Of a DNA stretch of 17,836 nt, positions 1-16,358 are shown piece after piece. Below the pieces are notes generated by a model. It was not told the DNA's origin, did not search any database, and saw nothing but the letters and a program-made list of their open reading frames with translations. The first letter of the stretch is position 1, and the number at the start of each line of letters is the position of its first letter. The position numbers and the translations under genes are program-made. Source of the stretch: a virus (lineage: Duplodnaviria; Heunggongvirae; Uroviricota; Caudoviricetes); the IMG/VR virus record IMGVR_UViG_2554235189_000012, positions 1 through 17,836 of that record. The stretch is one strand, 5' to 3'.

Positions 1-1248
1 ATGGCACTGAATATTCCATTCAGAAATGCGTACTATCGTTTTGCATCCAGTTACTCATTTCTCTTTTTTATTTCCTGGTCGCTGTGGTGGTCGTTATACG
101 CTATTTGGCTGAAAGGACATCTAGGGTTGACAGGGACGGAATTAGGTACACTTTATTCGGTCAACCAGTTTACCAGCATTCTATTTATGATGTTCTACGG
201 CATCGTTCAGGATAAACTCGGTCTGAAGAAACCGCTCATCTGGTGTATGAGTTTCATCCTGGTCTTGACCGGACCGTTTATGATTTACGTTTATGAACCG
301 TTACTGCAAAGCAATTTTTCTGTAGGTCTAATTCTGGGGGCGCTATTTTTTGGCTTGGGGTATCTGGCGGGATGCGGTTTGCTTGATAGCTTCACCGAAA
401 AAATGGCGCGAAATTTTTATTTCGAATATGGAACAGCGCGCGCCTGGGGATCTTTTGGCTATGCTATTGGCGCGTTCTTTGCCGGCATATTTTTTAGTAT
501 CAGTCCCCATATCAACTTCTGGTTGGTCTCGCTATTTGGCGCTGTATTTATGATGATCAACATGCGTTTTAAAGATAAGGATCACCAGTGCGTAGCGGCA
601 GATGCGGGAGGGGTAAAAAAAGAGGATTTTATCGCAGTTTTCAAGGATCGAAACTTCTGGGTTTTCGTCATATTTATTGTGGGGACGTGGTCTTTCTATA
701 ACATTTTTGATCAACAACTTTTTCCTGTCTTTTATGCAGGTTTATTCGAATCACACGATGTAGGAACGCGCCTGTATGGTTATCTCAACTCATTCCAGGT
801 GGTACTCGAAGCGCTGTGCATGGCGATTATTCCTTTCTTTGTGAATCGGGTAGGGCCAAAAAATGCATTACTTATCGGAGTTGTGATTATGGCGTTGCGT
901 ATCCTTTCCTGCGCGCTGTTCGTTAACCCCTGGATTATTTCATTAGTGAAGTTGTTACATGCCATTGAGGTTCCACTTTGTGTCATATCCGTCTTCAAAT
1001 ACAGCGTGGCAAACTTTGATAAGCGCCTGTCGTCGACGATCTTTCTGATTGGTTTTCAAATTGCCAGTTCGCTTGGGATTGTGCTGCTTTCAACGCCGAC
1101 TGGGATACTCTTTGACCACGCAGGCTACCAGACAGTTTTCTTCGCAATTTCGGGTATTGTCTGCCTGATGTTGCTATTTGGCATTTTCTTCTTGAGTAAA
1201 AAACGCGAGCAAATAGTTATGGAAACGCCTGTACCTTCAGCAATATAG
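1..1248 (+). CDS. cscB: Sucrose permease, LacY-family MFS sugar:H+ symporter
   Basis: 415-aa ORF beginning at window base 1 with TAG stop at 1246-1248; strongly hydrophobic multi-TM profile; sequence recognised from memory as E. coli CscB (MALNIPFRNAYYRF...). Confidence 0.9.
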   Translation: MALNIPFRNAYYRFASSYSFLFFISWSLWWSLYAIWLKGHLGLTGTELGTLYSVNQFTSILFMMFYGIVQDKLGLKKPLIWCMSFILVLTGPFMIYVYEPLLQSNFSVGLILGALFFGLGYLAGCGLLDSFTEKMARNFYFEYGTARAWGSFGYAIGAFFAGIFFSISPHINFWLVSLFGAVFMMINMRFKDKDHQCVAADAGGVKKEDFIAVFKDRNFWVFVIFIVGTWSFYNIFDQQLFPVFYAGLFESHDVGTRLYGYLNSFQVVLEALCMAIIPFFVNRVGPKNALLIGVVIMALRILSCALFVNPWIISLVKLLHAIEVPLCVISVFKYSVANFDKRLSSTIFLIGFQIASSLGIVLLSTPTGILFDHAGYQTVFFAISGIVCLMLLFGIFFLSKKREQIVMETPVPSAI

Positions 1249-1257
1249 ACGTAAACT

Positions 1258-1301
1258 TTTTCCGGTTGTTGTCGATAGCTCTATATCCCTCAACCGGAAA
1301 A
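1258..1301. repeat. Perfect 11-bp inverted repeat (TTTTCCGGTTG ... CAACCGGAAAA) with 22-nt loop, 10 nt after cscB stop
   Basis: Read directly from sequence; no U-run on either strand after the stem, so not a classical intrinsic terminator. Confidence 0.5.
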
Positions 1302-1689
1302 TAATAATAGTAAAATGCTTAGCCCTGCTAATAATCGCCTAATCCAAACGCCTCATTCATGTTCTGGTACAGTCGCTCAAATGTACTTCAGATGCGCGGT
1401 TCGCTGATTTCCAGGACATTGTCGTCATTCAGTGACCTGTCCCGTGTATCACGGTCCTGCGAATTCATCAAGGAATGCATTGCGGAGTGAAGTATCGAGT
1501 CACGCCATATTTCGCTATCAGGATTCTGTGTGATGGTTACATCGCCCGGCTCAGGGCTGTTTAGTCATCAGCGCTTTCTGACAGTGCTGAGATTTCAACC
1601 TGTTGCAGTAAAAATGAGTAGATATAAGGCAAGTGTGCTGCCAAACCCATCTTTTACGGGGTGAAGGTAGATTTCGTTTGAAGGGTATC

Positions 1690-1704
1690 TGGTGTCCCCT
1701 GCAG
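1690..1704 (-). other. 15-nt segment matching the 3' end (T-stem/acceptor/CCA) of an Arg tRNA (argW-like), reverse orientation; candidate att core remnant
   Basis: tggtgtcccctgcag is the reverse complement of CTGCAGGGGACACCA, which I recall as the 3' end of E. coli tRNA-Arg(CCU); identity stops after 15 nt, so no complete tRNA gene is present. Confidence 0.4.
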
Positions 1705-1777
1705 ACATCTACTTGAAGCGACAGGGGATTGATTGGAATGGTGTTTTTTAGATGTGAAAAATATTTTACCCGCTATT

Positions 1778-1978
1778 TTACCCATTGGCGCGGCTTAAGA
1801 GCTTATTTTTGAATTCACAATGGTCACGATATAACCATCTTGCTCGCCCGTGGATAACTTTGGCTTTTGGCAGGTCGCCGGACTTAATCCGGTCGTAGAT
1901 GAAGGTTTTACCGAAGCCAGTATCGGCCATGATGAATTTCAAATCAACCAGTGAATCAGGCTGGAGTTCGTGTTGCAT
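1778..1978 (-). CDS. xis: Excisionase-like / AlpA-family small DNA-binding protein
   Basis: 66-aa ORF with GGAG about 9 nt upstream of ATG; motif FIMADTGFGKTFIYDRIKSGDLPKAKVIHGRARW resembles prophage excisionase/AlpA-type winged-helix proteins; located at the prophage-chromosome junction. Confidence 0.5.
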   Translation of the reverse strand: MQHELQPDSLVDLKFIMADTGFGKTFIYDRIKSGDLPKAKVIHGRARWLYRDHCEFKNKLLSRANG

Positions 1979-1997
1979 GAGTGCTATCTCCGAATAT

Positions 1998-2013
1998 GGA
2001 ATCGAACCTGCAA
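1998..2013 (-). other. 16-nt segment matching the T-arm of the same Arg tRNA (reverse orientation), on the other side of xis
   Basis: ggaatcgaacctgcaa is the reverse complement of TTGCAGGTTCGATTCC, the stretch I recall immediately 5' of the 15-nt piece at 1690-1704 in argW; flanks do not continue the tRNA. Confidence 0.3.
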
Positions 2014-2020
2014 ATCAGGT

Positions 2021-2043
2021 AATAAAAAACCGCCATCAGGCGG
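2021..2043 (-). terminator. Putative intrinsic terminator on minus strand (5-bp stem CCGCC/GGCGG, loop TGAT, then TTTTTTATT)
   Basis: Hairpin plus U-run read from sequence; short stem, so moderate confidence; sits at the 3' end of the IS2-interrupted ORF. Confidence 0.4.
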
Positions 2044-2083
2044 CTTGGTGTTCTTTCAGTTCTTCAATACAAATATTGGTTAC

Positions 2084-2088
2084 GTCTG
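2084..2088. repeat. IS2 target-site duplication GTCTG (left copy)
   Basis: Identical 5-bp GTCTG directly abuts both ends of the IS2 element; 5-bp duplication is typical for IS2. Confidence 0.8.
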
Positions 2089-2099
2089 TGGATTTGCCC

Positions 2100-3005
2100 C
2101 TATATTTCCAGACATCTGTTATCACTTAACCCATTACAAGCCCGCTGCCGCAGATATTCCCGTGGCGAGCGATAACCCAGCGCACTATGCGGATGCCATT
2201 CGTTATAATGCTCGAACGCCTCTGCAAGGTTCTTTGCTGCCGTTAACCCGTCTGGTTTGGGCATGATACTGATGTAGTCACGCTTTATCGTTTTCACGAA
2301 GCTCTCTGCTATTCCGTTACTCTCCGGACTCCGCACCGCCGTGTTCTTCGGTTCAAGTCCCAACATCCGGGCGAACTGGCGTGTTTCATTAGCCCGGTAG
2401 CATGAACCATTATCCGTCAGCCACTCCACTGGAGACGACGGAAGATCGTTGCCGAAGCGGCGTTCCACCGCTCCCAGCATGACGTCCTGTACTGTTTCAC
2501 TGTTGAAGCCGCCGGTAGTCACCGCCCAGTGCAGTGCCTCACGATCACAGCAGTCCAGCGCGAACGTGACACGCAGTCTCTCTCCGTTATCACAGCAGAA
2601 CTCGAACCCGTCAGAGCACCATCGCTGATTGCTTTCTTTCACGGCCACTCTGCCTGTATGTGCCCGTTTCGATGGCGGTACAGCAGGTTTTCGCTCAAGC
2701 AACAGCGCATTCTGGCGCATGATCCGGTAAACACGTTTGGCATTGATCGCAGGCATACCATCAAGTTCTGCCTGTCTGCGAAGCAGCGCCCATACCCGAC
2801 GATAACCATACGTGGGCAGCTCTCCGATAACATGGTGTATACGGAGAAGCACATCCGTATCATCAGTGTGACGACTGCGGCGGCCATCCATCCAGTCATC
2901 GGTTCGTCTGAGAATGACGTGCAACTGCGCACGCGACACCCGGAGACAACGGCTGACTAAGCTTACTCCCCATCCCCGGGCAATAAGGGCGCGTGCGCTA
3001 TCCAC
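2100..3005 (-). CDS. insD: IS2 transposase OrfB (DDE integrase-type catalytic domain)
   Basis: 301-aa [26 protein letters not shown]... recognised as IS2 InsD; overlaps the 3' end of insC as expected for an IS3-family -1 frameshift arrangement. Confidence 0.9.
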
Positions 3006-3328
3006 TTTTTTGCCCGTCCATATTCAACGGCTTCTTTGAGGAGTTCATTTTCCATCGTTTTCTTGCCGAGCAGGCGCTGGAGTTCTTTAATCTGCTTCAT
3101 GGCGGCAGCAAGTTCAGAGGCAGGAACAACCTGTTCTCCGGCGGCCACAGCAGTAAGACTTCCTTCCTGGTATTGCTTACGCCAGAGAAATAACTGGCTG
3201 GCTGCTACACCATGTTGCCGGGCAACGAGGGAGACCGTCATCCCCGGTTCAAAGCTCTGCTGAACAATTGCGATCTTTTCCTGTGTGGTACGCCGTCTGC
3301 GTTTCTCCGGCCCTAAGACATCAATCAT
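2963..3328 (-). CDS. insC: IS2 OrfA (HTH DNA-binding protein)
   Basis: 121-aa [44 protein letters not shown]... recognised as IS2 InsC; the ORF-track entry starts 15 codons further upstream. Confidence 0.9.
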
Positions 3329-3419
3329 CTGTTCTCCAATGACTAGTCTAAAAACTAGTATTAAGACTATCACTTATTTAAGTGATACTGGTTGTCTGGA
3401 GATTCAGGGGGCCAGTCTA

Positions 3420-3424
3420 GTCTG
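3420..3424. repeat. IS2 target-site duplication GTCTG (right copy)
   Basis: See left copy at 2084-2088. Confidence 0.8.
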
Positions 3425-3550
3425 CATGTGCTATCTGCGCCCATATCATCCAGTGGTCATAGCAGTCGTTGATGTTCTCTGCTTCGATAACCCTGTCGAA
3501 TGACTCTCCATTCCATTCACCTGTGACTCGGAAGTGCATTTATCATCTCC

Positions 3551-3577
3551 ATAAAACAAAACTCGCCGTAGCGAGTT
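3551..3577 (-). terminator. Putative intrinsic terminator on minus strand (stem AACTCGC/GCGAGTT, loop TACG, then TTTGTTTTAT)
   Basis: 7-bp inverted repeat followed by a U-rich tract on the minus strand, 43 bp downstream of the 3620-3811 gene. Confidence 0.5.
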
Positions 3578-3619
3578 CAGATAAAAGAAATCCATCAATT
3601 GGTTAGGGTTTTTGTAATT

Positions 3620-3811
3620 CTACGAATTATGTTGTTTTTTAGCTTCAGCTTTCCATTCATCAAAGGCAGTGTCTTTGTTCATGGTGCTGATATTGATCTT
3701 ACGGTCAATATCATATACACGCCACTCACCGTTGGGCCTCTCTTCGCATCTAACTAAGTATGAATTGCCATTAATATCTATGCGTCTGTCTATTTGCATG
3801 AACATTTTCAA
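3620..3811 (-). CDS. Hypothetical small protein (63 aa)
   Basis: ORF MKMFMQIDRRIDINGNSYLVRCEERPNGEWRVYDIDRKINISTMNKDTAFDEWKAEAKKQHNS; AGAGGA upstream of a TTG/ATG start cluster; preceded by an AT-rich region with a TATAAT box and followed by a terminator. Confidence 0.45.
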   Translation of the reverse strand: MKMFMQIDRRIDINGNSYLVRCEERPNGEWRVYDIDRKINISTMNKDTAFDEWKAEAKKQHNS

Positions 3812-3874
3812 TTTTCGAATCCTCTTTAATATGCATTTTTTGCTATTTCAGTAGTTTACTATTGATGAGGCGTT

Positions 3875-3880
3875 ATTATA
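3875..3880 (-). promoter_or_regulatory. Candidate promoter -10 element TATAAT on minus strand, upstream of the 3620-3811 gene
   Basis: Consensus TATAAT on the minus strand in the AT-rich 3812-3922 intergenic region; no well-spaced -35 (TTGCAT lies only 12 nt upstream), so weak evidence. Confidence 0.3.
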
Positions 3881-3922
3881 CACACTTCATTAATGCAAGC
3901 ATCTTTATGCTATGCTACTAAT

Positions 3923-4204
3923 TTAGCAATTGATATTCACCTTTATCGCGTATACCTTTACCGGTTTATCACCGAAGTGGGGGTGTGTGATTGTTTTCAC
4001 TTCATATCCTCCATACGGAACATCAATTCTGCGACTGGAGTCGTCGCGCTTCGGATATCCCTTTGTGATAATCAGGCGGTCATACTCCCGGAACATAATT
4101 CGCTTATTCCAATAGTCATTACACAGGCGATACTCTTCCGTTTTCTCCCCGCGAATCATGGCATCGAAGTATTCACCTTTGACGGCAAGTTGTAGGTTAG
4201 CCAC
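3923..4204 (-). CDS. ASCH/PUA-like small protein (93 aa)
   Basis: GTG start preceded by AGGAGG at 6-nt spacing; motif YFDAMIRGEKTEEYR resembles the conserved N-terminal signature of ASCH-domain proteins; start overlaps the stop of the upstream gene. Confidence 0.45.
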   Translation of the reverse strand: MANLQLAVKGEYFDAMIRGEKTEEYRLCNDYWNKRIMFREYDRLIITKGYPKRDDSSRRIDVPYGGYEVKTITHPHFGDKPVKVYAIKVNINC

Positions 4205-4499
4205 GGTTAACCTCCTGCGGAGTAGCCTTTACAAGCACTGGTGTAAATCCATCTTCATTAAGGTTATGAATATAGACTTCTGTTCTCCTGCGCTCTTCAA
4301 CGTTTAATATTGTTTCTGGATCATAAACCCATACTTTCATTCGACTATTCCATGAAGAAATCGCTTCAGATCTAGTTCGTTTTTCTGGTCCTTGGGCACC
4401 ACATTTGCATGACACATAGCGCATTTTCCCTCTGATACTGAATGAGTATCCGATATTAAGCACAGTGGAACCACAGAATGGGCAGCGATATAGATTCAT
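4197..4499 (-). CDS. Lar-family restriction-alleviation-like protein with C-terminal extension (100 aa)
   Basis: N-terminal CPFCGS...(22 aa)...CKCGAQGP...AISSWNSR matches the Lar-family zinc-ribbon pattern; start overlaps upstream stop (ATGA). Confidence 0.6.
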   Translation of the reverse strand: MNLYRCPFCGSTVLNIGYSFSIRGKMRYVSCKCGAQGPEKRTRSEAISSWNSRMKVWVYDPETILNVEERRRTEVYIHNLNEDGFTPVLVKATPQEVNRG

Positions 4500-5029
4500 A
4501 AATCATCCACCTTAGGCGCAGCTGAGACAGCAACATTCCAGAACTCAGAAAACATATTGTATGCACCAGATAGATTGGAAGTGGCATACCCTCCAAGCTC
4601 ACTTCTAATCTGAACGGCTCTCATCATTTCCGGTGCTAACTCCTTCGGCACCATAACCCAACCATCCGGAGTTACCGGAGAGTTGCCCGACAGCTCGTTC
4701 AACTTGTAAGTTTGGCTTACAGGTTCGGCTTCCAGTTCTGCTATGCGCTTTTTTGCTGCTTCCAGCTCGCCAAGCAGCGCCAAGACGGTAGCTGGATTGG
4801 CTGCGGCGATGAATTCAGCATTGGCCTGCTGTTCCATTTGGAAATCTTCATCGAAACCGCTTTCAGGATGCGCTCCTTCAATTCTGCAAATGGGAATATA
4901 TCCAACAACTTCACGATGAATTAGCGCATCACCAGCATCAAATCTCTCCTCTCCATATTCGAGCGACCACACACCACACGTTGCTTTCTCTGCCTTTTCA
5001 CGCAGTGCCTGATAGTCAATCTTGCTCAT
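4496..5029 (-). CDS. Ead/Ea22-like prophage protein (177 aa)
   Basis: N-terminus MSKIDYQALREKAEKATCGVW resembles the conserved N-terminus of Ead/Ea22-like proteins of lambdoid prophages; typical position between xis and the recombination genes. Confidence 0.5.
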   Translation of the reverse strand: MSKIDYQALREKAEKATCGVWSLEYGEERFDAGDALIHREVVGYIPICRIEGAHPESGFDEDFQMEQQANAEFIAAANPATVLALLGELEAAKKRIAELEAEPVSQTYKLNELSGNSPVTPDGWVMVPKELAPEMMRAVQIRSELGGYATSNLSGAYNMFSEFWNVAVSAAPKVDDL

Positions 5030-5030
5030 G

Positions 5031-5330
5031 TCACATCACCCTGAATCCGTTGCATTTACGTAAAAAATCGCAGATATAGCCCTTCATTTTTTCGTGCCAA
5101 TCTCGATCATTCCCATTGCACCAACCATAAGGTGGAGTCCAGTTTTCTATCAGAGCAGCCATTTTCTTTGCTTTTGCAGGAGTAGCTGTTGCGGTATCGC
5201 AGTAATGACGAGTGTCGATCAACGTATCCATACCATCGATATCAAGTACGCAAAACCATGTGTGATTCGGCATTTCAACAGATGGTATTTGTTGCCCACG
5301 TCGACGTTTATCAATAAGACATACAGTCAT
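5031..5330 (-). CDS. Hypothetical protein (99 aa)
   Basis: ORF with AAGGTGG upstream of ATG; start overlaps upstream stop (ATGA); no family recognised. Confidence 0.5.
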   Translation of the reverse strand: MTVCLIDKRRRGQQIPSVEMPNHTWFCVLDIDGMDTLIDTRHYCDTATATPAKAKKMAALIENWTPPYGWCNGNDRDWHEKMKGYICDFLRKCNGFRVM

Positions 5331-5872
5331 GGTTCCACCTTCTCTATTTGCTTAAGACCGTCTCTCACTGCATTAAGTACGCGTTCCAGATACTGGTATT
5401 TCGGGTTTGGTGCCGTTGGCCAGTCGGCATACCACGGATCATCACCAAAGAGATTCAGCAGTTTGTTACCGACACCGAAACAACAGCAGCTTTCTTTTAC
5501 GTCATCGGCGTTTTCCGCCTCGTCCCACATTTCGCGAGCCTGTACCGCGTCGATTTCTCTCTCTCTTCGTAAATTTATGATTTCTGACTTCACGAAAAGC
5601 AGATTTGCATCGTTGTCATCGTCGACCGTGCTTCGCAGTTGAGGGTCGAAATAGCCGATTAGATACTCGTTGCTGACCCGCTTAATGAACGTCTGCACAT
5701 CATCACCGCCCATAGCAAACCAAGCCGCAGTCCACGCTTTTCCGTAGCAGGTGATGGTGATTCTTCCCTTACCAGGTTCGTAGTTTTCAATCATCACTCG
5801 AACCGGATCTAGTCGCTCTGCACCGGTTATAACGAATGACAACACATCAATCTTTTCAACCGTTACACTCAC
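5327..5872 (-). CDS. Hypothetical protein (~181 aa, GTG start)
   Basis: The ORF track extends this frame to 6064, but that extension overlaps the Lar-like gene at 5856-6092 in another frame; AGGAGG lies 6 nt upstream of an in-frame GTG at 5872, the start preferred here. Start remains uncertain. Confidence 0.45.
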   Translation of the reverse strand: MSVTVEKIDVLSFVITGAERLDPVRVMIENYEPGKGRITITCYGKAWTAAWFAMGGDDVQTFIKRVSNEYLIGYFDPQLRSTVDDDNDANLLFVKSEIINLRREREIDAVQAREMWDEAENADDVKESCCCFGVGNKLLNLFGDDPWYADWPTAPNPKYQYLERVLNAVRDGLKQIEKVEP

Positions 5873-6092
5873 TGGTTGCCTCCTTTGCTCGCTGATTCCA
5901 CTCTGCTCTAACCTCTGAATAAAAAATCGCGCAGTCATTTCCAGGCGCTGCATATTTGCTACCAGATTGAGCGCGACACGTACCGCATCGAACGAAATAG
6001 AATCGACCGCCAGAGCCATATTCAGGGTGATCTGCTTCGCTGGCAACGTGCGCTGCGCCGCCACAGAATGGACATGGTAGTAGGTTGCTCAT
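5856..6092 (-). CDS. Lar-family restriction-alleviation-like protein, second paralog (78 aa)
   Basis: [16 protein letters not shown]...FYFVRCGTCRAQSGSKYA...AEWNQRA matches the Lar zinc-ribbon pattern; GAGGGAG upstream of ATG at 6092; start overlaps upstream stop (ATGA). Confidence 0.55.
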   Translation of the reverse strand: MSNLLPCPFCGGAAHVASEADHPEYGSGGRFYFVRCGTCRAQSGSKYAAPGNDCAIFYSEVRAEWNQRAKEATSECNG

Positions 6093-6565
6093 GAATGCAC
6101 TCCCTCGTGAAGCTGTTCCGCACAATGCAGCAGGGCGTCCGTCGCTTCTTTCACCGTAACGATATCGCCATCGTCCAGCCCGGCAACCGTCGCGTCCTTA
6201 ACGAACACCGAGCAAAGGTCATTAAACGCCTGCGCCCGTACTTCAGCCAGAAAAGCATCGGTAGCTGGAGTTTCAGTAACATCATCTTCCCATTCGCTAA
6301 ACTCCTCACGACAAAAGTCATTAAATTCCTTCTCAGATTGCTTAAGCGATGTATTTTCAGCAGCCATCTTCGCGCATTTAGCCTCAAGGTTATCAATCGT
6401 GATTCCAGCAGAACGACACTCCCGCAACGCAGTTTCCAGTTTTGATTCAAGCTCACCGAACTTACGCACCAGATATTCAGCGTTTGTTTCGTTAACCTTT
6501 AAATCTCGTGGGATGCATTTACCTTTCAGAAAACCATCCATCTCAATTAGTGACATTTGTTTCAT
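6089..6565 (-). CDS. Hypothetical, predicted coiled-coil protein (158 aa)
   Basis: [19 protein letters not shown]...; heptad-like charged repeats; no family recognised. Confidence 0.5.
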
Positions 6566-6726
6566 TTCTTCCCACTCCGCAACATTGCATTCAGATATTT
6601 GTTGTCATTAACAGAACCGAAACTCTTTCTCTTAAGCAATTCCTCTCTCGATGGCATTGGCTTTACGCGTTGGCGAATAATCATTTCTGCCGGAAGAATG
6701 CCGGGATTGTATGCAAGTCCTCTCAT
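6562..6726 (-). CDS. Hypothetical small basic protein (54 aa), below ORF-track size cutoff
   Basis: ATG at 6726 overlaps the stop of the upstream gene (ATGA), and its own TGA overlaps the ATG of the downstream gene; [54 protein letters not shown]; exactly fills the gap between two called genes. Confidence 0.35.
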
Positions 6727-7004
6727 GATTTACTCTCAACGAACTGGTCAATAGCCATGCTAAGTGACATACCTAAAGTTTCGATATGCTGCTGAATATC
6801 CTGTAGCGTCTGCGCCTGAGATAACAGGATTTCACGGTTGCATAACTCTTTAACCAGATGCTCAAACTTGCTGTAATAACCGATACGACTTAGTGTTTCT
6901 TTCCCTGCATTCTCTCCTTCTTTGATAATTCCTCTTTCGCTAAGAATCAGGTCGTGTTTGGTTCCGGTAATAACGTATTTTCCGAGGTCGATGTTTAGCT
7001 TCAT
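6723..7004 (-). CDS. Hypothetical protein (93 aa)
   Basis: ORF with GGAG upstream of ATG at 7004; no family recognised. Confidence 0.5.
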
Positions 7005-7020
7005 TGTTAATTACTCCATG

Positions 7021-7335
7021 TTAATTTATTCGTATGCCTGCTCTTTCTTCATCGAGTTTTTTTAGCTTGTATCGCATAGCTCTTACTGAATAAATTGAGC
7101 GGCAGGTTGCAATTGCTATTTCTTCTGCGGAGAACTTACCGAAAAGTGATACTTCGGCTCTTGTCCATCGTCTTCCACGAAGTCGGCTAACAATGTCAGC
7201 GCCAATCCTTGTTGCTTTCGCCATTACTGCTTTTTCAGTCCTTTCCAGTTTTTCAGCGATAACTTCAACTGGCATTGTCGCCGCTACTTCGCGCAAGAAA
7301 TCGACTTCCCATTTCTCCCATGGAGTCTTTTTCAT
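7021..7335 (-). CDS. Putative DNA-binding protein with two Myb/SANT-like repeats (104 aa)
   Basis: Two tandem ~40-aa segments each with a conserved Trp followed by helix-like A/E/I-rich stretches (WEKWEVDFLREVAATMPVEVIAEKL and RRWTRAEVSLFGKFSAEEIAIATCR); assignment is by pattern only. Confidence 0.4.
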   Translation of the reverse strand: MKKTPWEKWEVDFLREVAATMPVEVIAEKLERTEKAVMAKATRIGADIVSRLRGRRWTRAEVSLFGKFSAEEIAIATCRSIYSVRAMRYKLKKLDEERAGIRIN

Positions 7336-7346
7336 AGGCGATACCG

Positions 7347-7829
7347 TTATTTGATAAGAAGTGAAGGTTTCCCAACCTTGAGTTGAGCGCCTGGGATATT
7401 TATTCCTGCTTTTAGTTGGTGCTTGATTGCCAACTTGTCGGCTTTAATTGTCGTTTCAAACTCAACGTATTCAGGAGGAATGGCGCTTGAGTCGATGATT
7501 TCTACAGTTTCTGACGGTTTGCGGATTGTTACCTGGTGAATACCTGCTCGAATCTTTTTCTTGCCAACCATTTCAAGCGATGACGCTATATATGCCATAA
7601 TGCTATCAATCTTATTTTGAATTACTGCTGCTCGTTCATTCAGTGACTTTGCCTCGTCCTTGAGGCGTTCAGCATAACCAGATTCATTTTTAATAATGGC
7701 AAGAAGTTGCTCTATTTTATCGGTAAATTCTCCTTCCATGCCTTCTATTGTGTCAGCAATCATCTCTGGCTCTAAATCTGAATCCATCAGCTTTGCGTAT
7801 TCATTGGCTATTTCATACAGTTTGCTCAC
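7347..7829 (-). CDS. Mu Gam-like / Gp157-like protein (~160 aa)
   Basis: Directly downstream of recT; N-terminal predicted coiled coil and C-terminal G-x-V-x-I-R-x-P pattern resemble Mu Gam / siphovirus Gp157 family proteins; GTG start at 7829 preferred because GGAGG lies 6 nt upstream. Confidence 0.4.
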   Translation of the reverse strand: MSKLYEIANEYAKLMDSDLEPEMIADTIEGMEGEFTDKIEQLLAIIKNESGYAERLKDEAKSLNERAAVIQNKIDSIMAYIASSLEMVGKKKIRAGIHQVTIRKPSETVEIIDSSAIPPEYVEFETTIKADKLAIKHQLKAGINIPGAQLKVGKPSLLIK

Positions 7830-8724
7830 TGGCAACCTCCAGTTTCGCTTTGCATTCTATGTAAATGGCTTGTACGTTCTGCTGCAATTTCATTCCAGAT
7901 GTCAGGCGATATGCTTCTGCAAAATATCGCTTCAAATCATCCATGTTTTCTGCCTGAGCCATTTCATCGCAAAGAAGTTGTGCTTTATCCATTATTTCCT
8001 GCTGGCGTTTCCGTTCATCTTCGCGGATATCTTCCTCTGATTTGTGCGGCATAACTGGTTCAGTCCATACACCTTCTTCTTCGTTTAGTACGTGAATAGC
8101 ACTATCAAGACGTGATGCCTTAGGCCAATACTTGCTTGCACGCTTTACGACCGTCTTTCGCGCCATCTCATTCCAGTGATTTACCCATGGTCCTTTATCG
8201 CTGAATGCCGCCTTGCTTGTTTTCCTTACAGCCTCAATTTCAGCCAGACTCATCTCTTCCGTTAGATAATCACCTGCTGGCGTCTTAACTGTGCAGTAAA
8301 CGCCAACGATATCACCACGATCACCGAAGGCGTTGTATTTATGGGTTGGTGCTTTATCAAGCCCGTTTGACTCATAGGTATCGTTAGCATGAACAAGTTT
8401 TGCCTGACCCCATGAGATAACACCAGACTCCATTGCAATATGGAGCAATCCCATATAACTGATATCAAGGCACACCATGCCGTCGCGCGGAACCAGATAA
8501 GCCAGTTTGCTAGCCGGGTTTAAGGTGATGCCGATCGCCGCAACATTGATGATGGCGTTCTGTGCGCTGGTTGGATTTGCCAGTGCCGTTTTAGCCAGGT
8601 AATCATTTTTCTGGAAATACTGAATTGCAAACTGGCTTTCCTTAGCCCATGTCACCGTCTGTTCAGTCAATGCTCCGCAGAATAACTGCTCCTGCTGTTT
8701 AACGAATTCAACGATATTGCTCAT
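7813..8724 (-). CDS. recT: RecT-family single-strand annealing recombinase
   Basis: 303-aa ORF; motif GPWVNHWNEMARKTVVKRASKYWP closely parallels GPWVTHWEEMAKKTAIRRLFKYLP of E. coli RecT; GGAG RBS; position matches bet of lambda. Confidence 0.8.
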   Translation of the reverse strand: MSNIVEFVKQQEQLFCGALTEQTVTWAKESQFAIQYFQKNDYLAKTALANPTSAQNAIINVAAIGITLNPASKLAYLVPRDGMVCLDISYMGLLHIAMESGVISWGQAKLVHANDTYESNGLDKAPTHKYNAFGDRGDIVGVYCTVKTPAGDYLTEEMSLAEIEAVRKTSKAAFSDKGPWVNHWNEMARKTVVKRASKYWPKASRLDSAIHVLNEEEGVWTEPVMPHKSEEDIREDERKRQQEIMDKAQLLCDEMAQAENMDDLKRYFAEAYRLTSGMKLQQNVQAIYIECKAKLEVASEQTV

Positions 8725-9032
8725 GCTGCTTCTCCATAAATGTGTCTGCGTTTGAATATTGCGAAGGCATATTCAGCCTTAACTCTTTCGGTTATTGCAT
8801 CCCAGAACCATTCAGCGGCTTTTTCCTGATAGTCACAGTCATCATCTTCCAGCCAGTCGATAGCGTCCTTAGTGTGTTCATCTGGTTTATATGAGCGAAG
8901 CATTTCGCTTATTGGGTCGCAACGTTTGCAGAGGCGATCAACTTCACTGTTGATTCGTTCGTAATCATCATCAGTAAAACTTGCGATGATTTGCGATATT
9001 TCACGCTTATCATTCAGAGTCAGAATCATCAT
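8721..9032 (-). CDS. Hypothetical acidic protein (103 aa) at the gam/abc position
   Basis: ORF with AGGAGAAAG upstream of ATG; Asp/Glu-rich; lies between kil and recT where lambda has gam and P22 has abc1/abc2; function not assignable from sequence. Confidence 0.5.
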   Translation of the reverse strand: MMILTLNDKREISQIIASFTDDDYERINSEVDRLCKRCDPISEMLRSYKPDEHTKDAIDWLEDDDCDYQEKAAEWFWDAITERVKAEYAFAIFKRRHIYGEAA

Positions 9033-9113
9033 CTTTCTCCTGTTCTTTGTGCTGATTGAGCATTTCTTTCATCTGACGAATGAATTCTTCGTCTGACCAG
9101 TTATCTGTAAAAC

Positions 9114-9266
9114 TCATTTCCTGCGATACCACGGAAGGTTGATAGCTGATTTCATCGCTTTATTTGCTTCAAGCCACATTTTTGAATCACCAATAAATCT
9201 GGCTATTACTGCTTTGTTCTGTGCAGCACGAAGCATCTGGTGATTAATGGCTATTTCATTGCGCAT
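9114..9266 (-). CDS. kil: Kil-like host cell-division inhibitor (50 aa), below ORF-track size cutoff
   Basis: MRNEIAINHQMLRAAQNKAVIARFIGDSKMWLEANKAMKSAINLPWYRRK shares the IA-FIGD-KM-EA pattern I recall from lambda Kil; immediately downstream of cIII as in lambda; GAGG RBS 7 nt upstream. Confidence 0.45.
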   Translation of the reverse strand: MRNEIAINHQMLRAAQNKAVIARFIGDSKMWLEANKAMKSAINLPWYRRK

Positions 9267-9376
9267 AATAAGACCTCAACTCTTTTCCATCCGTCACGTA
9301 ATTTACGGGTGATTCGTTCAAGTAAAGATTCGGAAGGGCAGCCAGCAACAGGCCACCCTGCAATGGCATATTGCAT
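9251..9376 (-). CDS. cIII: CIII-like regulator (inhibitor of FtsH-mediated CII degradation)
   Basis: MQYAIAGWPVAGCPSESLLERITRKLRDGWKR matches the lambda CIII N-terminal region as I recall it; AAGGAG RBS; the ORF-track entry 9251-9478 includes a non-coding upstream extension. Confidence 0.8.
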   Translation of the reverse strand: MQYAIAGWPVAGCPSESLLERITRKLRDGWKRVEVLLCAMK

Positions 9377-9436
9377 GGTGTGCTCCTTATTTATACATAA
9401 CGAAAAACGCCTCTCGTGAAGCGTTATTGGTATGCA

Positions 9437-9463
9437 TATAAAAAGGCCCTCACACTGGAGGGC
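9437..9463 (-). terminator. Intrinsic terminator on minus strand (stem GCCCTC/GAGGGC, 6-nt loop, then CTTTTTAT) upstream of cIII
   Basis: GC-rich 6-bp hairpin followed by a U-run on the minus strand; analogous in position to a tL terminator that would need N antitermination for read-through. Confidence 0.55.
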
Positions 9464-9599
9464 AAAGAAGATTTCCAATAATCAGAACAAGTCGGCTCCT
9501 GTTTAGTTACGAGCGACATTGCTCCGTGTATTCACTCGTTGGAATGAATACACAGTGCAGTGTTTATTCTGTTGTTTATGCCAAAAATAAAGGCCACTA

Positions 9600-9851
9600 T
9601 CAGGCAGCTTTGTTGTAAATGTTGCAGGTATCAAGTAAGTAATTAGATGGAGCGCCATAAATTATGAATTCATCGTTTGTCTGGTCCATCTCCATCTCTT
9701 GGCCTATTGCCATTCTTGCGTCAGTGTCATCAGCGGCGAAGCATAAAACAGCCCACGCACCCATTGTTTTAAAAAGAACTGCAATTGGCTGTGGTTTTAC
9801 TGAATTTGCGTTAGCGCGAAAATCACAAATCGCACTTTCATGAAATTCCAT
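9600..9851 (-). CDS. Hypothetical protein (83 aa)
   Basis: ORF MEFHESAICDFRANANSVKPQPIAVLF...; preceded by the conserved 26-nt leader and a GAGGTGA RBS. Confidence 0.5.
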   Translation of the reverse strand: MEFHESAICDFRANANSVKPQPIAVLFKTMGAWAVLCFAADDTDARMAIGQEMEMDQTNDEFIIYGAPSNYLLDTCNIYNKAA

Positions 9852-9858
9852 ATCTCAC

Positions 9859-9884
9859 CTCAAATAATTGGTTTGCTGCCAAAA
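9859..9884 (-). promoter_or_regulatory. Conserved 26-nt 5' leader element, copy 1 (minus strand TTTTGGCAGCAAACCAATTATTTGAG)
   Basis: 25/26 identical to a second copy at 10096-10121; both end 7 nt upstream of an ATG start codon. Confidence 0.4.
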
Positions 9885-9893
9885 GAAAACCGA

Positions 9894-10088
9894 CTATGCG
9901 TCCTGTCGTTTTTCCGACGCTCTATTCATTTCCTGCCAGATGGCAACTACAGCATCTTCAATATTTCTTTCCTTCAGATCCCATAAATCCCACAGGCCTG
10001 GCATCTCATGACCAAGTTCATCTAAAAGTTTTTTTGCTCCAGCCTGAATCACGTTCTCACTCAGTTGAATCTCTGTTGTTGATTTCAT
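9894..10088 (-). CDS. Hypothetical protein (64 aa; alternative start at 10154 would give 86 aa)
   Basis: ATG at 10088 is preceded by GAGAGGA and the conserved leader; the upstream in-frame ATG at 10154 overlaps the previous stop (ATGA) and cannot be excluded. Confidence 0.45.
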   Translation of the reverse strand: MKSTTEIQLSENVIQAGAKKLLDELGHEMPGLWDLWDLKERNIEDAVVAIWQEMNRASEKRQDA

Positions 10089-10095
10089 AATTCCT

Positions 10096-10121
10096 CTCAA
10101 ATAAGTGGTTTGCTGCCAAAA
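10096..10121 (-). promoter_or_regulatory. Conserved 26-nt 5' leader element, copy 2 (minus strand TTTTGGCAGCAAACCACTTATTTGAG)
   Basis: See copy 1 at 9859-9884. Confidence 0.4.
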
Positions 10122-10150
10122 CAATGAACCATCCGGAAATTCCAGATAGT

Positions 10151-10375
10151 TCATAATTCACTCTTCAATACTTCCAACTTACTAATCGCCGATAGATATC
10201 CGCGCTGATAGGGCATCATCATTCCTTCGAGCTTGCCACTTCTTAACTCCTCCCTGAGCAATTGTATTGCTTGATCAATAACCTCTGCCTTAGCGTCCTT
10301 TATGGCTTGCTTGCGGGGCTTTGCTTTCTGCTTTGGCAGATTTCTCAAGCATGATGGAATGTATGTCTGATTCAT
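10151..10375 (-). CDS. Hypothetical basic protein (74 aa) immediately downstream of N
   Basis: ATG 3 nt after the N stop codon, GAGG upstream; Lys/Arg-rich; no family recognised. Confidence 0.5.
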   Translation of the reverse strand: MNQTYIPSCLRNLPKQKAKPRKQAIKDAKAEVIDQAIQLLREELRSGKLEGMMMPYQRGYLSAISKLEVLKSEL

Positions 10376-10378
10376 CAC

Positions 10379-10651
10379 TTACCTCGCTGTCAGTTGTTTT
10401 GATTTCCGGTAGCCTGCCGCGTAAAGAGCTACGTTTGGCAGGCAAATACTTCCACTGCATTCATCTGCCTTCTTGCAGCGAAGGCCTCCGAGTGATGCTG
10501 CTTTATCTGCTCTGACGCAACCAGAGAGCTTTAGCGCAATTTTTCGCGCCAGTCGCTGCTCTTGCATTGCCTGTTCACGTTGAGCCTGTCTGCGTGCTCT
10601 GCGGCGATTTCTGGCGTTATCGTCAGCCAGATATGTAATGACTACTGCCAT
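10379..10651 (-). CDS. N: N-like transcription antitermination protein with arginine-rich motif
   Basis: 90-aa ORF with GGAGG RBS; Arg-rich N-terminus (NARNRRRARRQAQREQ); central and C-terminal segments (ARKIALKLSGCVRADKAASLG..., VALYAAGYRKSKQLTAR) resemble phage 21 and P22 N proteins as recalled; lies downstream of pL/nutL. Confidence 0.75.
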   Translation of the reverse strand: MAVVITYLADDNARNRRRARRQAQREQAMQEQRLARKIALKLSGCVRADKAASLGGLRCKKADECSGSICLPNVALYAAGYRKSKQLTAR

Positions 10652-10758
10652 GTTGACCTCCGATGATTGACTTTGGCGGTGACGCGCCGGGTGCTTATCT
10701 TCCGGTTGCCGTCGTGCAGCTGCACTTCACGTCACCCCAAAGCCAACTACTCTTTGGT

Positions 10759-10799
10759 TCCCGCATTTCGGCGGGACAATCCCATCAATGTTAAAGAGC
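10759..10799 (-). promoter_or_regulatory. nutL-like site: boxA GCTCTTTAAC plus boxB hairpin TCCCGCCGAAATGCGGGA (minus strand)
   Basis: The same boxA and boxB sequences occur on the plus strand between cro and cII (nutR); each lies downstream of its promoter. Confidence 0.55.
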
Positions 10800-10845
10800 C
10801 TGCCAATCTGTTCCGTTTGGCTACCAGCGTCCTGCTGATGGCTAA

Positions 10846-10874
10846 AGAATACTGTAGGTATTTTATTGTGTAAA
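10846..10874 (-). promoter_or_regulatory. Candidate pL promoter (-35 TTTACA, 17-nt spacer, -10 TATTCT) overlapping operators
   Basis: Hexamers read on the minus strand overlap two AATAC-N5-GTATT operators; the same -10 hexamer and operator arrangement occur at pR. Confidence 0.4.
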
Positions 10875-10932
10875 TACCCAAGGTATTTATTTTTGATGAA
10901 ATAATGATAAGCAAATGAATACAAAGGATATT
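10848..10932. promoter_or_regulatory. oL operator region: three AATAC-N5-GTATT-type sites (10848-10862, 10873-10887, 10918-10932)
   Basis: AATACTGTAGGTATT, AATACCCAAGGTATT (part of a perfect 17-bp palindrome AAATACCCAAGGTATTT), AATACAAAGGATATT; same half-site as the oR sites. Confidence 0.55.
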
Positions 10933-11018
10933 TATTTTTTCGGTGTCTGCTTGTTCAGTGCTTTTTATGCGGGATATGTGAAGTGGATCCCGATAGCTAT
11001 TGCTGCCGGGATTATAGG

Positions 11019-11387
11019 TTAGTCAGCGAAGGTTAAGACGAGAATTACCTTAATGATGTCTGCTACAACAGACACGGCCATAGATAAACCAAAGACGATC
11101 CAAGCCACAGTGATGTCTTCACTACCATCGTATAGAGTTCCGTAATCACTGGTGTAAGGCGTAAATGTCGCGCCTTGATACAATAGGTATAAGCTTGATC
11201 CATAGAGGATAAATGCAGATATCCCTTGTATTGCTATGATCACCAGAATCATGAAACGAGCTGATCTATGCGCCCAAGCCTGGCTTATTTTTTCTGATAG
11301 AGATTTCGCAATAAAAGTATGCGCTAAGCCGTAAATTGTCGAGATTGCCAACATCCCAAAAAAGCTTGCTATAGCGGTTCCAACCAT
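11019..11387 (-). CDS. Small integral membrane protein (~122 aa, three predicted TM helices) downstream of cI
   Basis: ORF begins 18 nt after the cI stop with AAGGGG upstream of ATG at 11387 (the ORF track starts it at a TTG inside the cI stop); three hydrophobic segments; occupies the position of rexAB in lambda. Confidence 0.6.
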   Translation of the reverse strand: MVGTAIASFFGMLAISTIYGLAHTFIAKSLSEKISQAWAHRSARFMILVIIAIQGISAFILYGSSLYLLYQGATFTPYTSDYGTLYDGSEDITVAWIVFGLSMAVSVVADIIKVILVLTFAD

Positions 11388-11404
11388 AATCGCCCCTTGC
11401 GTGA

Positions 11405-12121
11405 TCAAACCAGCCTTAGTTTTGTCTCAATTGCAACGCCTATAATCTTGCAGTTTCCATTGATTGGCACGAGAGGCCATGCAGGATTAAGTCCCTTGAG
11501 GTATTTATTTCCGCCGTCGATTATCAGCTTCTTGAATGTTGCTTCGTTAGAGTCAGAAAGTTTTGCTATGACCAAGCTGCCGTTGATCGCCTCCCTTCCG
11601 GTATCGAAAAGAACGAATGTTCCCTCTGGAATACTTAACCCAACCGGTGCCGTCATTGAATCACCTTCCACTTTAAGCCAGAACGCATTACCTTGAATAT
11701 GCGCGTCAGACTCAAGCCAAACATCTATGTCTTTAATGGTGTATGGTTCGCATGCTTCACACCACGAGCCAGCCTGGATACTGCTTAACACCGGATACCT
11801 CTTTCCTGCTCTGTATTCCCCTGCATACCTTACGTTGGCATCGCTCTTAAGGCTTTCTGCCTGTTCTGCAACCTTGGCAGCAATTGACTGGCTAAAATCA
11901 GCAATTGAGACTTGCAACAAACGTGCAAAACCAGATGCGACCTCAACGTTTAGCGCGTTTCTGCCATTAAGATAATGCCCTACCGCTCCTTGGGTGATAC
12001 CCAGTTCATCAGCGATTGAGTATTGGGTTATTCCCAATTCTTTCTTTTTTGACTCATACAAAGCCTTAAGCCGCTTAGCGTCTTCGAGCTGTTCTGTCGT
12101 CAGTGATTTTTTATTTTCCAT
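11405..12121 (-). CDS. cI: CI-type prophage repressor (HTH_XRE N-terminal domain plus LexA/S24-like C-terminal domain)
   Basis: 238-aa ORF; N-terminus TEQLEDAKRLKALYESKKKELGITQYSIADELG parallels lambda CI; C-terminal FWLKVEGDSMTAP matches the S24 autocleavage domain; divergent from cro with operators between. Confidence 0.9.
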   Translation of the reverse strand: MENKKSLTTEQLEDAKRLKALYESKKKELGITQYSIADELGITQGAVGHYLNGRNALNVEVASGFARLLQVSIADFSQSIAAKVAEQAESLKSDANVRYAGEYRAGKRYPVLSSIQAGSWCEACEPYTIKDIDVWLESDAHIQGNAFWLKVEGDSMTAPVGLSIPEGTFVLFDTGREAINGSLVIAKLSDSNEATFKKLIIDGGNKYLKGLNPAWPLVPINGNCKIIGVAIETKLRLV

Positions 12122-12156
12122 AGCTTAATTCTAATAGCTAAGGTACTTAAACTAAA

Positions 12157-12196
12157 AATACCCTGAGTATTGATTGCTTTGAATACCTGTAGTATT
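12157..12196. promoter_or_regulatory. oR operator region: two AATAC-N5-GTATT sites (12157-12171, 12182-12196)
   Basis: AATACCCTGAGTATT and AATACCTGTAGTATT, 10 bp apart, between cI and cro; a third site nearer cI could not be defined. Confidence 0.55.
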
Positions 12197-12198
12197 CT
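12170..12198 (+). promoter_or_regulatory. Candidate pR promoter (-35 TTGATT, 17-nt spacer, -10 TATTCT)
   Basis: Hexamers overlap the two oR sites; cro ATG about 30 nt downstream. Confidence 0.4.
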
Positions 12199-12227
12199 TT
12201 GTTCATGGTTAATAACGGAGAGTGCAT

Positions 12228-12422
12228 ATGATTCGAATGACACTTGCCGATTACGCCAAAATCCATGGACAGGCTAAAGCAGCCAGTGACTTTGGTGTAA
12301 TCCAGTGCGCTATCAGCAAGGCCATTCTGGCAGGCCGTAACATTATGGTTACGGTAAAGCCTGATGGCAGTGTGATTGGAGAGGAAGTTCGTCCTTTCCC
12401 AAGCAACAAGAAAAACAAATAG
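12228..12422 (+). CDS. cro: Cro-like repressor
   Basis: 64-aa [65 protein letters not shown], homologous in pattern to lambda Cro; GGAG RBS; the ORF track starts it at an upstream GTG. Confidence 0.8.
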
Positions 12423-12429
12423 TAACACC

Positions 12430-12473
12430 GCTCTTTAACAGTCATGGTCCTCATTCCCGCCGAAATGCGGGAA
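12430..12473 (+). promoter_or_regulatory. nutR-like site: boxA GCTCTTTAAC plus boxB hairpin TTCCCGCCGAAATGCGGGAA
   Basis: 7-bp stem and 6-nt loop hairpin 14 nt after boxA, between cro and cII; boxB core identical to nutL. Confidence 0.55.
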
Positions 12474-12530
12474 TACAACGCGCATAAGTTGATGCGCATA
12501 ACTTCTTATTTGTTAAGGAAATACTTACAT

Positions 12531-12824
12531 ATGGTTCGTGCAAACAAACGCAACGAGGCTCTACGAATCGAGAGTGCGTTGCTTAACAAAATCGCAATGC
12601 TTGGAACTGAGAAGACAGCGGAAGCTGTGGGAGTTGATAAGTCGCAGATCAGCAGGTGGAAGAGGGACTGGATTCCAAAGTTCTCAATGCTGCTTGCTGT
12701 TCTTGAATGGGGCGTCGTTGACGACGATATGGCTCGATTGGCACGACAAGTTGCTTCGATTCTCACCAATAAAAAACGCCCGGCGGCAACCGAGCGTTCT
12801 GAACAAATCCAGATGGAATTCTGA
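12531..12824 (+). CDS. cII: CII transcriptional activator (lambda-type)
   Basis: 97-aa product [51 protein letters not shown]... is, as far as I can recall, essentially identical to lambda CII; upstream RBS region also lambda-like. Confidence 0.9.
12540..12553 (-). promoter_or_regulatory. CII-binding TTGC-N6-TTGC repeat of a pRE-type promoter (minus strand)
   Basis: Minus strand reads TTGCGTTTGTTTGC inside the 5' end of cII, as in lambda pRE. Confidence 0.5.
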
Positions 12825-12846
12825 GGTCATTACTGGATCTATCAAC
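12770..12846 (-). ncRNA. oop: Possible oop-like antisense RNA (terminator hairpin within 3' end of cII; promoter only partly conserved)
   Basis: Lambda-like sequence at the cII 3' end includes a GC-rich hairpin followed by TTTTTTATTGG on the minus strand; a CATAAT -10 is retained but the -35 region differs because the downstream sequence is not lambda-like. Extent inferred by analogy. Confidence 0.3.
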
Positions 12847-12856
12847 AGGAGTAATT

Positions 12857-13002
12857 ATGACAAAACAACTCAGTCCTTACCAGGACAAAATTCACAAACA
12901 CATACTACGTGATCGCTTCCTGTCCAGCTTCAAGCAGCCTGGTCGATTCAGGGCTGAGTTGGAAAAAGTGAAGCTGATGCAGAAGGAGAAAGGTCATGAG
13001 TA
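12857..13002 (+). CDS. Hypothetical 48-aa protein between cII and the O-like gene (reminiscent of P22 orf48 by position and size)
   Basis: AGGAG 6 nt upstream of ATG at 12857; [48 protein letters not shown]; stop overlaps the O-like start; its RBS and first codons coincide with where lambda O would start. Confidence 0.4.
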
Positions 13003-13856: not shown

Positions 13857-13859
13857 ACC

Positions 13860-13967
13860 ATGAAATCAAAAATCAAATCGCTACTGGTCGCTGGTTATAA
13901 CCACGGCTGGTTAAGTATTTCGTTTGTCGATTTCTGGTTTAAAAATCTCAATCTGAGGGAATCATGA
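13860..13967 (+). CDS. Possible 35-aa coupling ORF between O-like and primase-helicase genes
   Basis: ATG 4 nt after the O-like stop with AGGTGA upstream; MKSKIKSLLVAGYNHGWLSISFVDFWFKNLNLRES; its stop overlaps the helicase ATG (ATGA). Could equally be non-coding. Confidence 0.25.
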   Translation: MKSKIKSLLVAGYNHGWLSISFVDFWFKNLNLRES

Positions 13968-16347: not shown

Positions 16348-16358
16348 TGGAGAGGAAT

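Follow-up and report, generated by a model that had tools for sequence, protein, structure and literature searches.

Four-nucleotide stop/start overlaps in the accessory gene block of a putative lambdoid early-left operon

Genes and junctions of the accessory block

We analysed a 17,836-nucleotide (nt) stretch of tailed-phage DNA (IMG/VR record IMGVR_UViG_2554235189_000012, positions 1–17,836; referred to as the window) and focused on nine small genes at 3923–7004, which lie head to tail on the minus strand. In the direction of reading, the successive spacings between these genes were −4, −4, −4, −17, −4, +1, −4 and −8 nt, negative values being overlaps. At a −4 junction the stop codon TGA of one gene and the start codon ATG of the next form the tetranucleotide ATGA. 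A first-pass annotation of the window had listed seven such tetranucleotides on the minus strand, at 4496–4499, 5327–5330, 6089–6092, 6562–6565, 6723–6726, 8721–8724 and 10151–10154, and had described an unbroken chain of them from 4197 to 7004. We found that all seven were present, and that at each site TGA was the in-frame stop of an open reading frame (ORF) of at least 50 amino acids (aa) and ATG opened an ORF of at least 50 aa. The chain itself was broken twice inside the span, by a 17-nt overlap and a 1-nt spacer, and once at its end, by an 8-nt overlap with a GTG start. ATGA occupied five of the eight junctions of the block, with three (6726, 6565 and 6092) as the longest consecutive run.

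The block begins with a 93-aa DUF5405 gene (6723–7004; this and the following eight genes are all on the minus strand), which was identified by Pfam PF17399 and by phrog_154 over residues 1–92. It has homologues in HK140 (gp38) and Sf6 (gene 24) and carries its own GGAG Shine-Dalgarno sequence. Its stop codon overlaps the start of a 54-aa DUF2737 gene (6562–6726) in the ATGA at 6723–6726, which is a mosaic breakpoint as well. Residues 1–53 of DUF2737 aligned to positions 1–53 of PF10930 (E = 5.7e-30), and the gene is annotated with a length of 165 nt in HK140 and in records of the Prokaryotic Genome Annotation Pipeline (PGAP), and of 168 nt in Sf6. The ATGA at 6562–6565 joins DUF2737 to a 158-aa gene of unassigned function (6089–6565; phrog_614, with PHROG matches from residue 1–3), a homologue of HK140 gp36 and HK97 gp37. 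A third ATGA follows directly at 6089–6092, where PGAP annotates the same junction in the related loci L002 and L003, and leads into a 78-aa gene of the Lar restriction-alleviation type, here called Lar1 (5856–6092).

The ATG at 6092 is out of frame with the ORF that ends at 5327 (whether taken as 5327–6064 or as 5327–5872) and opens Lar1 instead. Lar1 matched PF14354 over residues 3–69 with 38.5 bits, against a gathering cut-off of 28.6, and TIGR03655 with 29.8 bits, under its cut-off of 39.6. In addition, PGAP places a 237-nt Lar gene in L002 and names a 99%-identical homologue of Lar1 'Lar family'. With a Pfam score above the curated threshold, the gene starting at 6092 is thus predicted to be a Lar family member. 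A 245-aa ORF (5327–6064, minus strand) overlaps Lar1 in another frame, which is also that of the upstream 158-aa gene; this frame, shared by the 158-aa and 181-aa genes, is open across Lar1, and its sole separator is the TGA at 6091–6089. The N-terminal part of the 245-aa ORF matched phrog_4132 and the N-terminal third of phrog_3451, and these matches most likely reflect mis-annotated long ORFs in databases. Dual coding or read-through over Lar1 was rejected: in Lar homologues of 85–93% identity the frame holds two to four stops, one of them the upstream gene's own.

The first break in the chain follows Lar1, whose TGA ends at 5856. The next gene, of 181 aa (5327–5872), starts with GTG at 5872, giving the −17 overlap (5856–5872) that PGAP also has in L002. 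Its product matched phrog_3451 (E = 2e-87), a family of unassigned function, and had no Pfam match; PDB sequence searches with the 181-aa and 158-aa proteins returned nothing below E = 0.2. The ATGA at 5327–5330 connects this gene to a 99-aa DUF7739 gene (5031–5330), the homologue of Sf6 gene 22, with residues 1–93 aligned to positions 1–92 of PF24881 and residues 1–99 to phrog_1239. The second break is the sequence TGAcATG at 5027–5033, in which the DUF7739 stop (5033–5031) and the ATG of the following gene (5029–5027) are separated by 1 nt at a mosaic boundary. The same +1 spacing at the end of DUF7739 is annotated in Sf6 (genes 22/21), L002 and L004.

The gene after this spacer is a 177-aa Ead/Ea22-like gene (4496–5029), in which residues 2–102 aligned to positions 1–89 of PF13935 (E = 1.4e-21). 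It overlaps by ATGA (4496–4499) with a second Lar-family gene, Lar2 (4197–4499, 100 aa), a homologue of Sf6 gene 20, and the junction is identical to that of Sf6 genes 21/20 (98% DNA identity). Lar2 scored 58.7 bits against TIGR03655 (cut-off 39.6) and matched PF14354 as well, so that one operon contains two Lar-family paralogues. Lar2 consists of the Lar domain and a tail of about 47 aa, and in L004 and L005 the annotation gives this tail a 47-aa gene of its own beside a Lar pseudogene. The −8 overlap at 4197–4204, between the TAA of Lar2 (4199–4197) and GTG 4204, closes the span of the supposed chain and leads into the last gene of the block, an ASCH-type gene of 93 aa (3923–4204; phrog_625, residues 1–92). 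PGAP annotates an 'ASCH domain-containing protein' with the same −8 overlap in L002, L004 and L005.

Start codons and junctions among relatives

The ATGA overlaps had been taken as support for the proposed start codons. Six of these starts were right by independent evidence: Pfam or PHROG profiles aligned from residue 1–3 at 4499, 5330, 6092, 6565 and 6726 (Lar2 from residue 2), and these five, together with 8724, coincided with annotated starts in Sf6, HK140 or PGAP records. The seventh, at 10154, was doubtful on evidence given below, and ATGA alone therefore does not validate a start.

To judge how unusual the arrangement is, junctions were counted with an ORF-pair criterion together with published and PGAP annotations; a greedy gene caller was dropped after it lost Lar1 and DUF2737 to longer spurious ORFs. 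The ORF-based criterion itself gave false positives, inside the host gene cscB at 550–553 and, with a 45-aa threshold, at 4337–4340. Against the seven minus-strand ATGA junctions of the window, 300 dinucleotide-preserving shuffles had 0.38 on average and at most 3; this null is trivial because shuffling destroys ORFs. Counted out to 3 kb on each side of DUF2737, the window had six ATGA junctions, and 42 full-length related viral loci had one to five (mean 3.2). The window thus equals or slightly exceeds the family maximum and is the same kind of thing, its high count being due largely to the extra module of Lar1 and the 181-aa gene. Published annotations agreed with this picture, with four −4 junctions in a row in HK140 (gp34–gp38), two to four in each PGAP prophage, and spacings of −4, +1, −4 and −4 in Sf6 genes 20–24. 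Among co-directional gene junctions in prokaryotes the −4 ATGA overlap is the commonest; three of the four bases come with the start codon, and it therefore arises readily. Across 3,998 genomes, ATGA made up 24% of unidirectional short overlaps (bioRxiv 10.64898/2026.09.10.750558). Collectively, the comparisons indicate that the five junctions of the block are real, ordinary and already known from the annotation of relatives.

We found that the type of junction varied around fixed starts. Of 80 related loci, 16 have the ATGAGA start of DUF2737 in an overlap, and the other 64 have it behind a spacer with no upstream stop. At the 3′ end of DUF2737 the junction A(A/G)AAATGAAAC, with ATGA, was kept in 65 of the 80 loci, nine more had GTGA, and the downstream ORFs ranged from 111 to 256 aa. 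All 44 Lar homologues of at least 85% identity started with ATGA, and an upstream ORF of 129–251 aa ended there in 41 of them. In the loci L113–L126 the Lar gene ends in an NTGA junction, and the window type has one nucleotide fewer directly upstream of it. This shortening puts the TGA of NTGA out of frame, and Lar1 is therefore five codons longer and forms the −17 overlap. The start position of DUF7739 is GTG in relatives, with an overlap of −4 in L004; in L002 the pattern of the Lar1 junction is repeated there and the overlap is −20. Such lability around fixed starts, read from sequence comparison, matches the genome-wide report that short overlaps are labile (bioRxiv 10.64898/2026.09.10.750558).

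Position of the block in the early-left operon

The window is best read as the early region of a mosaic lambdoid prophage in an E. coli-type (Escherichia coli) chromosome, parts of which match Sf6, HK140 and HK620-like phages. It is a patchwork of 95–98% DNA matches to HK140, mEpX1, Sf6, CUS-3, Stx phages and many E. coli prophages, and in the phage and E. coli collections no record covered at least 80% of the window or of the span of the block. The canonical elements of a lambdoid pL operon were found in order on the minus strand. A cI-type repressor gene (11405–12121), with HTH_3 and Peptidase_S24 domains, lies beside a leftward pL-like promoter (10874–10846; TTTACA, 17 nt, TATTCT) flanked by operator-like inverted repeats. 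These are followed by a nutL-like site at about 10800–10759, with a boxA (GCTCTTTAAC) matching the 'putative Nut boxA site' of HK140 and a boxB-like hairpin, and then by the N antiterminator gene (10379–10651; Pfam PF25694, E = 7e-16). After N come, in the same strand order, cIII (Lambda_CIII), kil (Lambda_Kil), a 103-aa gene, the recombination gene RecT (7813–8724, by profile match), a Gp157/Mu-Gam-like gene (7347–7835, matching Sipho_Gp157), the accessory genes and finally xis. The junction between the 103-aa gene and RecT is the ATGA at 8721–8724, as in HK140 gp42/gp41. A D5-like gene (7021–7335, minus strand) adjoins the DUF5405 gene through a 16-nt spacer.

The first-pass annotation had concluded that these genes are read as one long leftward polycistronic transcript. 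The layout supports this, and from 9406 to 3578 on the minus strand we found no terminator-like site; a consensus scan showed promoter-like sites to be rarer than in shuffles. The single transcript is what we infer from these findings. The span 3923–7335 corresponds in position to lambda's exo-xis region, whose genes are expressed from pL (PMC7093339).

The only Rfam family found in a scan of the window was the lambda cIII thermoregulator RNA (9331–9389, minus strand; RF01804, 88.5 bits). This match puts the cIII start at 9376, and the cIII ORF is short (41 aa) with a 16-nt overlap with the kil start. Nearby, a 51-aa ORF (9503–9658, minus strand) matched phrog_31828 end to end and overlaps by 59 nt with the 3′ end of an 83-aa gene (9600–9851); it may be a spurious ORF propagated through annotations. 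Downstream of the accessory genes, an IS2 (IS3-family) copy occupies about 2090–3415, with orfA at 2963–3373, orfB at 2100–3005 and terminal inverted repeats at 2097–2129 and 3378–3410, so that the large ORFs at 2100–3373 are IS2 transposase. The insertion lies distally in the early-left operon, with the accessory genes on one side and a TorI-like excisionase (xis) ORF (1778–1978, minus strand) on the other, the latter identified by synteny with an annotated torI and by a weak HTH_17 match. The prophage end abuts cscB (1–1248, plus strand), a host sucrose/oligosaccharide transporter gene of the major facilitator superfamily, and has a TorI-type xis but lacks an integrase, an arrangement shared by the relative L003. 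No integrase was found between cscB and the early-left operon; it is presumably at the other prophage end, a placement that we take to be a KplE1-like layout.

The rightward nin-type region (16341–17592, plus strand) contains 4-nt overlaps at 16670–16673 and 17262–17265 (GTG starts), an ATGA at 17083–17086 and an 8-nt overlap at 17425–17432. This region is packed in the same way, so that the leftward accessory block is not exceptional in its compact junctions.

Translational coupling, boundary sequences and known systems

We then considered what the overlaps might do. Shine-Dalgarno pairing at the starts 4499, 5330, 6092 and 6565 ranged from −6.2 to −8.0 kcal/mol, and that at the DUF2737 start (6726) was only −3.1 kcal/mol; for the five −4 starts the listed energies were −7.6, −7.3, −8.0, −6.2 and −3.1 kcal/mol. 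The strongest sequences were found at the −8 start (GTG 4204; AGGAGG, −11.0 kcal/mol) and at the −17 start (GTG 5872; AAGGAGG, −11.6 kcal/mol). Coupling is reported to fall off at longer overlaps (PMC12548453), and the pattern in the block is consistent with this. The five −4 junctions had no unusually stable local RNA structure (z −0.3 to +1.5). Coupling by RNA unfolding was accordingly rejected at these junctions, and re-initiation is favoured if coupling operates. In the sole systematic study of native −4 pairs in E. coli, which used reporters of five pairs, three were strictly coupled, one was coupled by about 60%, and bioBF was not coupled at all (PMC6728339). ATGA had been said to imply tight coupling; by analogy with such pairs, tight coupling is a plausible and reasonable expectation here but is not implied by the tetranucleotide.

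Based on these data, the best explanation is that the nine genes form a packed accessory block of the exo-xis/ea type within a pL operon, with ordinary ATGA junctions at which re-initiation is proposed; we give this a probability of roughly 0.85. On prophage induction, one N-antiterminated pL transcript would pass through the block. A ribosome terminating at UGA, 1 nt from the next AUG, would re-initiate there by termination-reinitiation. The moderate Shine-Dalgarno sequences would assist this step and could also permit some independent initiation, and the longer overlaps (−8 and −17), where weaker coupling is expected, would rely on the strongest Shine-Dalgarno sequences. Several points weigh against this explanation. 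An internal promoter has been reported in lambda's exo-xis region (PMC7093339), and one may exist here despite the consensus scan. Four of the five −4 starts have a usable Shine-Dalgarno sequence in unstructured RNA, so that coupling need not be tight, and the bioBF result gives a precedent for an uncoupled −4 pair. The tetranucleotides, reading frames, gene identities, starts and operon context are shown by the sequence; co-transcription and the degree of coupling in the block are inferred.

The same points bear on the possibility that the overlaps are neutral by-products of compaction and of the easy evolution of NTGA, with independent initiation and little or no coupling. We regard this as unlikely, yet it has evidence on its side: the moderate Shine-Dalgarno sequences at 4499, 5330, 6092 and 6565 lack an occluding structure, the same start is found at −4, at −17/−20 or behind a spacer among relatives, and short overlaps are labile and not enriched for interacting partners across genomes (bioRxiv 10.64898/2026.09.10.750558), to which uncoupled bioBF can be added (PMC6728339). 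Against it stand the weak Shine-Dalgarno sequence at the DUF2737 start (−3.1 kcal/mol), the coupling of most of the tested E. coli −4 pairs, and the 3′ junction of DUF2737, where the −4 spacing was kept in about 74 of 80 loci despite many downstream ORF lengths.

The junctions could also be viewed mainly as portable boundary cassettes, conserved short elements common to non-homologous gene pairs and made up of a Shine-Dalgarno sequence, an AACC-type spacer and NTGA. Homologous recombination inside them would shuffle modules, and ATGA would persist as a part of the cassette. A motif of this composition, AAGGAGGCAACCAGTGA, recurs at non-homologous junctions, namely in the window at 5869–5885 (minus strand; Lar1/181-aa gene), in L002 at about 1843–1860, in L003 at about 4395–4412 (Lar/Ead) and in L004 at about 2095–2112 (another gene/DUF7739), with variants at 5330 and 4204. 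BLAST endpoints clustered at several junctions, at 6720–6739 (66 endpoints), 5020–5039 (19), 5340–5359, 7000–7019 and 3920–3939, and the Sf6 record marks 'boundary sequence' features at such positions, genes 22/21 being labelled 'bsq3; boundary sequence'. Furthermore, a 43-nt direct repeat (9845–9887 and 10082–10124, 84% identity, 237 nt apart) contains a linker, TTTTGGCAGCAAACCAnTTATTTGAGG...ATATG, whose two copies flank an inserted small-gene cassette (about 9894–10088). In 64 viral contigs this linker stands ahead of eight or more different downstream genes, and it behaves as a module-boundary sequence. Many breakpoints, however, are intragenic (4760–4779 in the Ead/Ea22-like gene; 6220–6460 in the 158-aa gene), and the motif amounts largely to a Shine-Dalgarno sequence and a start codon, for whose conservation translation alone would suffice. 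Recombination cassettes are thus a doubtful primary account of the junctions, and one that is compatible with coupling.

A further idea joins the two functions, in that operon junctions would be dual-purpose portable cassettes serving both as recombination linkers and as translational relays. The clearest candidate lies outside the accessory block: a terminator-like hairpin at 10124–10154 (minus strand), downstream of N and a 75-aa gene in a tL1-like position, that begins with the ATGA at 10151–10154. This hairpin has a 14-bp stem, AUGAACUAUCUGGA-AUU-UCCGGAUGGUUCAU, followed by UGUUUUGG (−22.1 kcal/mol, z −3.3). The ATGA ends the 75-aa gene and its ATG opens an 86-aa ORF in the window, but a Shine-Dalgarno sequence is missing before this ATG (−2.4 kcal/mol). 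The annotation of JEP4 and ECP1 treats the identical sequence as intergenic, and there the frame opened by ATGA ends after 20 codons; the next gene begins after the conserved linker and GAGGTGA, at a position that aligns with an in-frame ATG of the window at 10088. The window ATG 10088, 66 nt downstream of 10154, is preceded by GAGAGGA, and alignment suggests that the gene after the hairpin probably starts there. The hairpin was conserved in 64 viral contigs, giving 65 copies with the window, before at least eight different downstream genes. The mini-ORF (about 20 codons in relatives) stopped +3, −1 or −4 nt from the next ATG, or fused with it in frame, as the 86-aa ORF of the window does, in 63 of the 65 copies, although these 63 rest on only about three independent linker classes and our rough chance estimate is about 0.01–0.05. 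If the mini-ORF were translated, ribosomes that have finished the 75-aa gene could open the terminator hairpin and pass translation on to the following cassette, which would provide a translation-dependent way past tL1 besides N. The mini-ORF and hairpin could thus be a relay or attenuation device, or a coincidence, and the general idea of dual-purpose cassettes is a speculative one that we consider improbable.

It is very unlikely that the ATGA overlaps are artefacts of longest-ORF choice with true starts downstream. Such an artefact probably occurred at 10151–10154, and the ORF criterion gave false positives at 550–553 (cscB) and 4337–4340, but profiles reach residue 1–3 at the five junctions of the block, and Sf6, HK140 and PGAP use the same starts there and at 8724.

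The value of these results lies chiefly in annotation quality. They correct three points of the gene map: ATG 6092 is the start codon of a Lar gene, GTG 5872 is that of the gene which follows, and 10088 is the probable start of the gene behind the 10154 hairpin. The region illustrates textbook points, namely that compact phage operons are dominated by −4 overlaps and that these overlaps are labile in evolution. Mosaic breakpoints located at short junction motifs, which they have in common, are seen as well. The hairpin and mini-ORF at 10124–10154 are the sole item that might merit experiment.

Finally, the block was compared with known systems. The closest relatives are Sf6 (genes 19–24), HK140 (gp33–gp38) and E. 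coli prophages, which have homologous Lar-like, Ead/Ea22-like, DUF7739, DUF2737 and DUF5405 genes, 95–98% DNA identity in patches, and −4, +1 and −8 junctions in the same places. The window differs from them in its combination of modules, in which Lar1 and the 181-aa gene separate the 158-aa gene from DUF7739, and has one −4 junction more than any of the 42 full-length related loci. The exo-xis genes of lambda (orf60a, orf61, orf63, orf73, ea22 and ea8.5) are likewise small ORFs expressed from pL and located between the recombination genes and xis (PMC7093339). They share an Ead/Ea22-family member with the window, whereas most window genes are non-homologous to the lambda set; unlike lambda, the window has a TorI-like xis, and the distal end is interrupted by an IS2 copy. 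The −4 NTGA pairs with termination-reinitiation coupling described by Huber et al. (2019, PMC6728339) and by Brown and Wade (2025, PMC12548453) have the same geometry, with co-directional genes, an AUG and a UGA that share two bases, a Shine-Dalgarno sequence within the upstream gene's 3′ end, and E. coli as host. The difference is that the genes here are phage accessory genes mostly of unassigned function and not subunits of one complex, and that their coupling would be expected only by analogy. Gene VII/IX of phage f1, a −4 pair coupled with a hairpin for which RNA unfolding is the model (PMC12548453), resembles only the junction at 10151–10154, where the start lies in a stable hairpin without a Shine-Dalgarno sequence; unlike the f1 pair, the 10124–10154 hairpin has a U-tract and is terminator-like, and the use of its AUG is doubtful.

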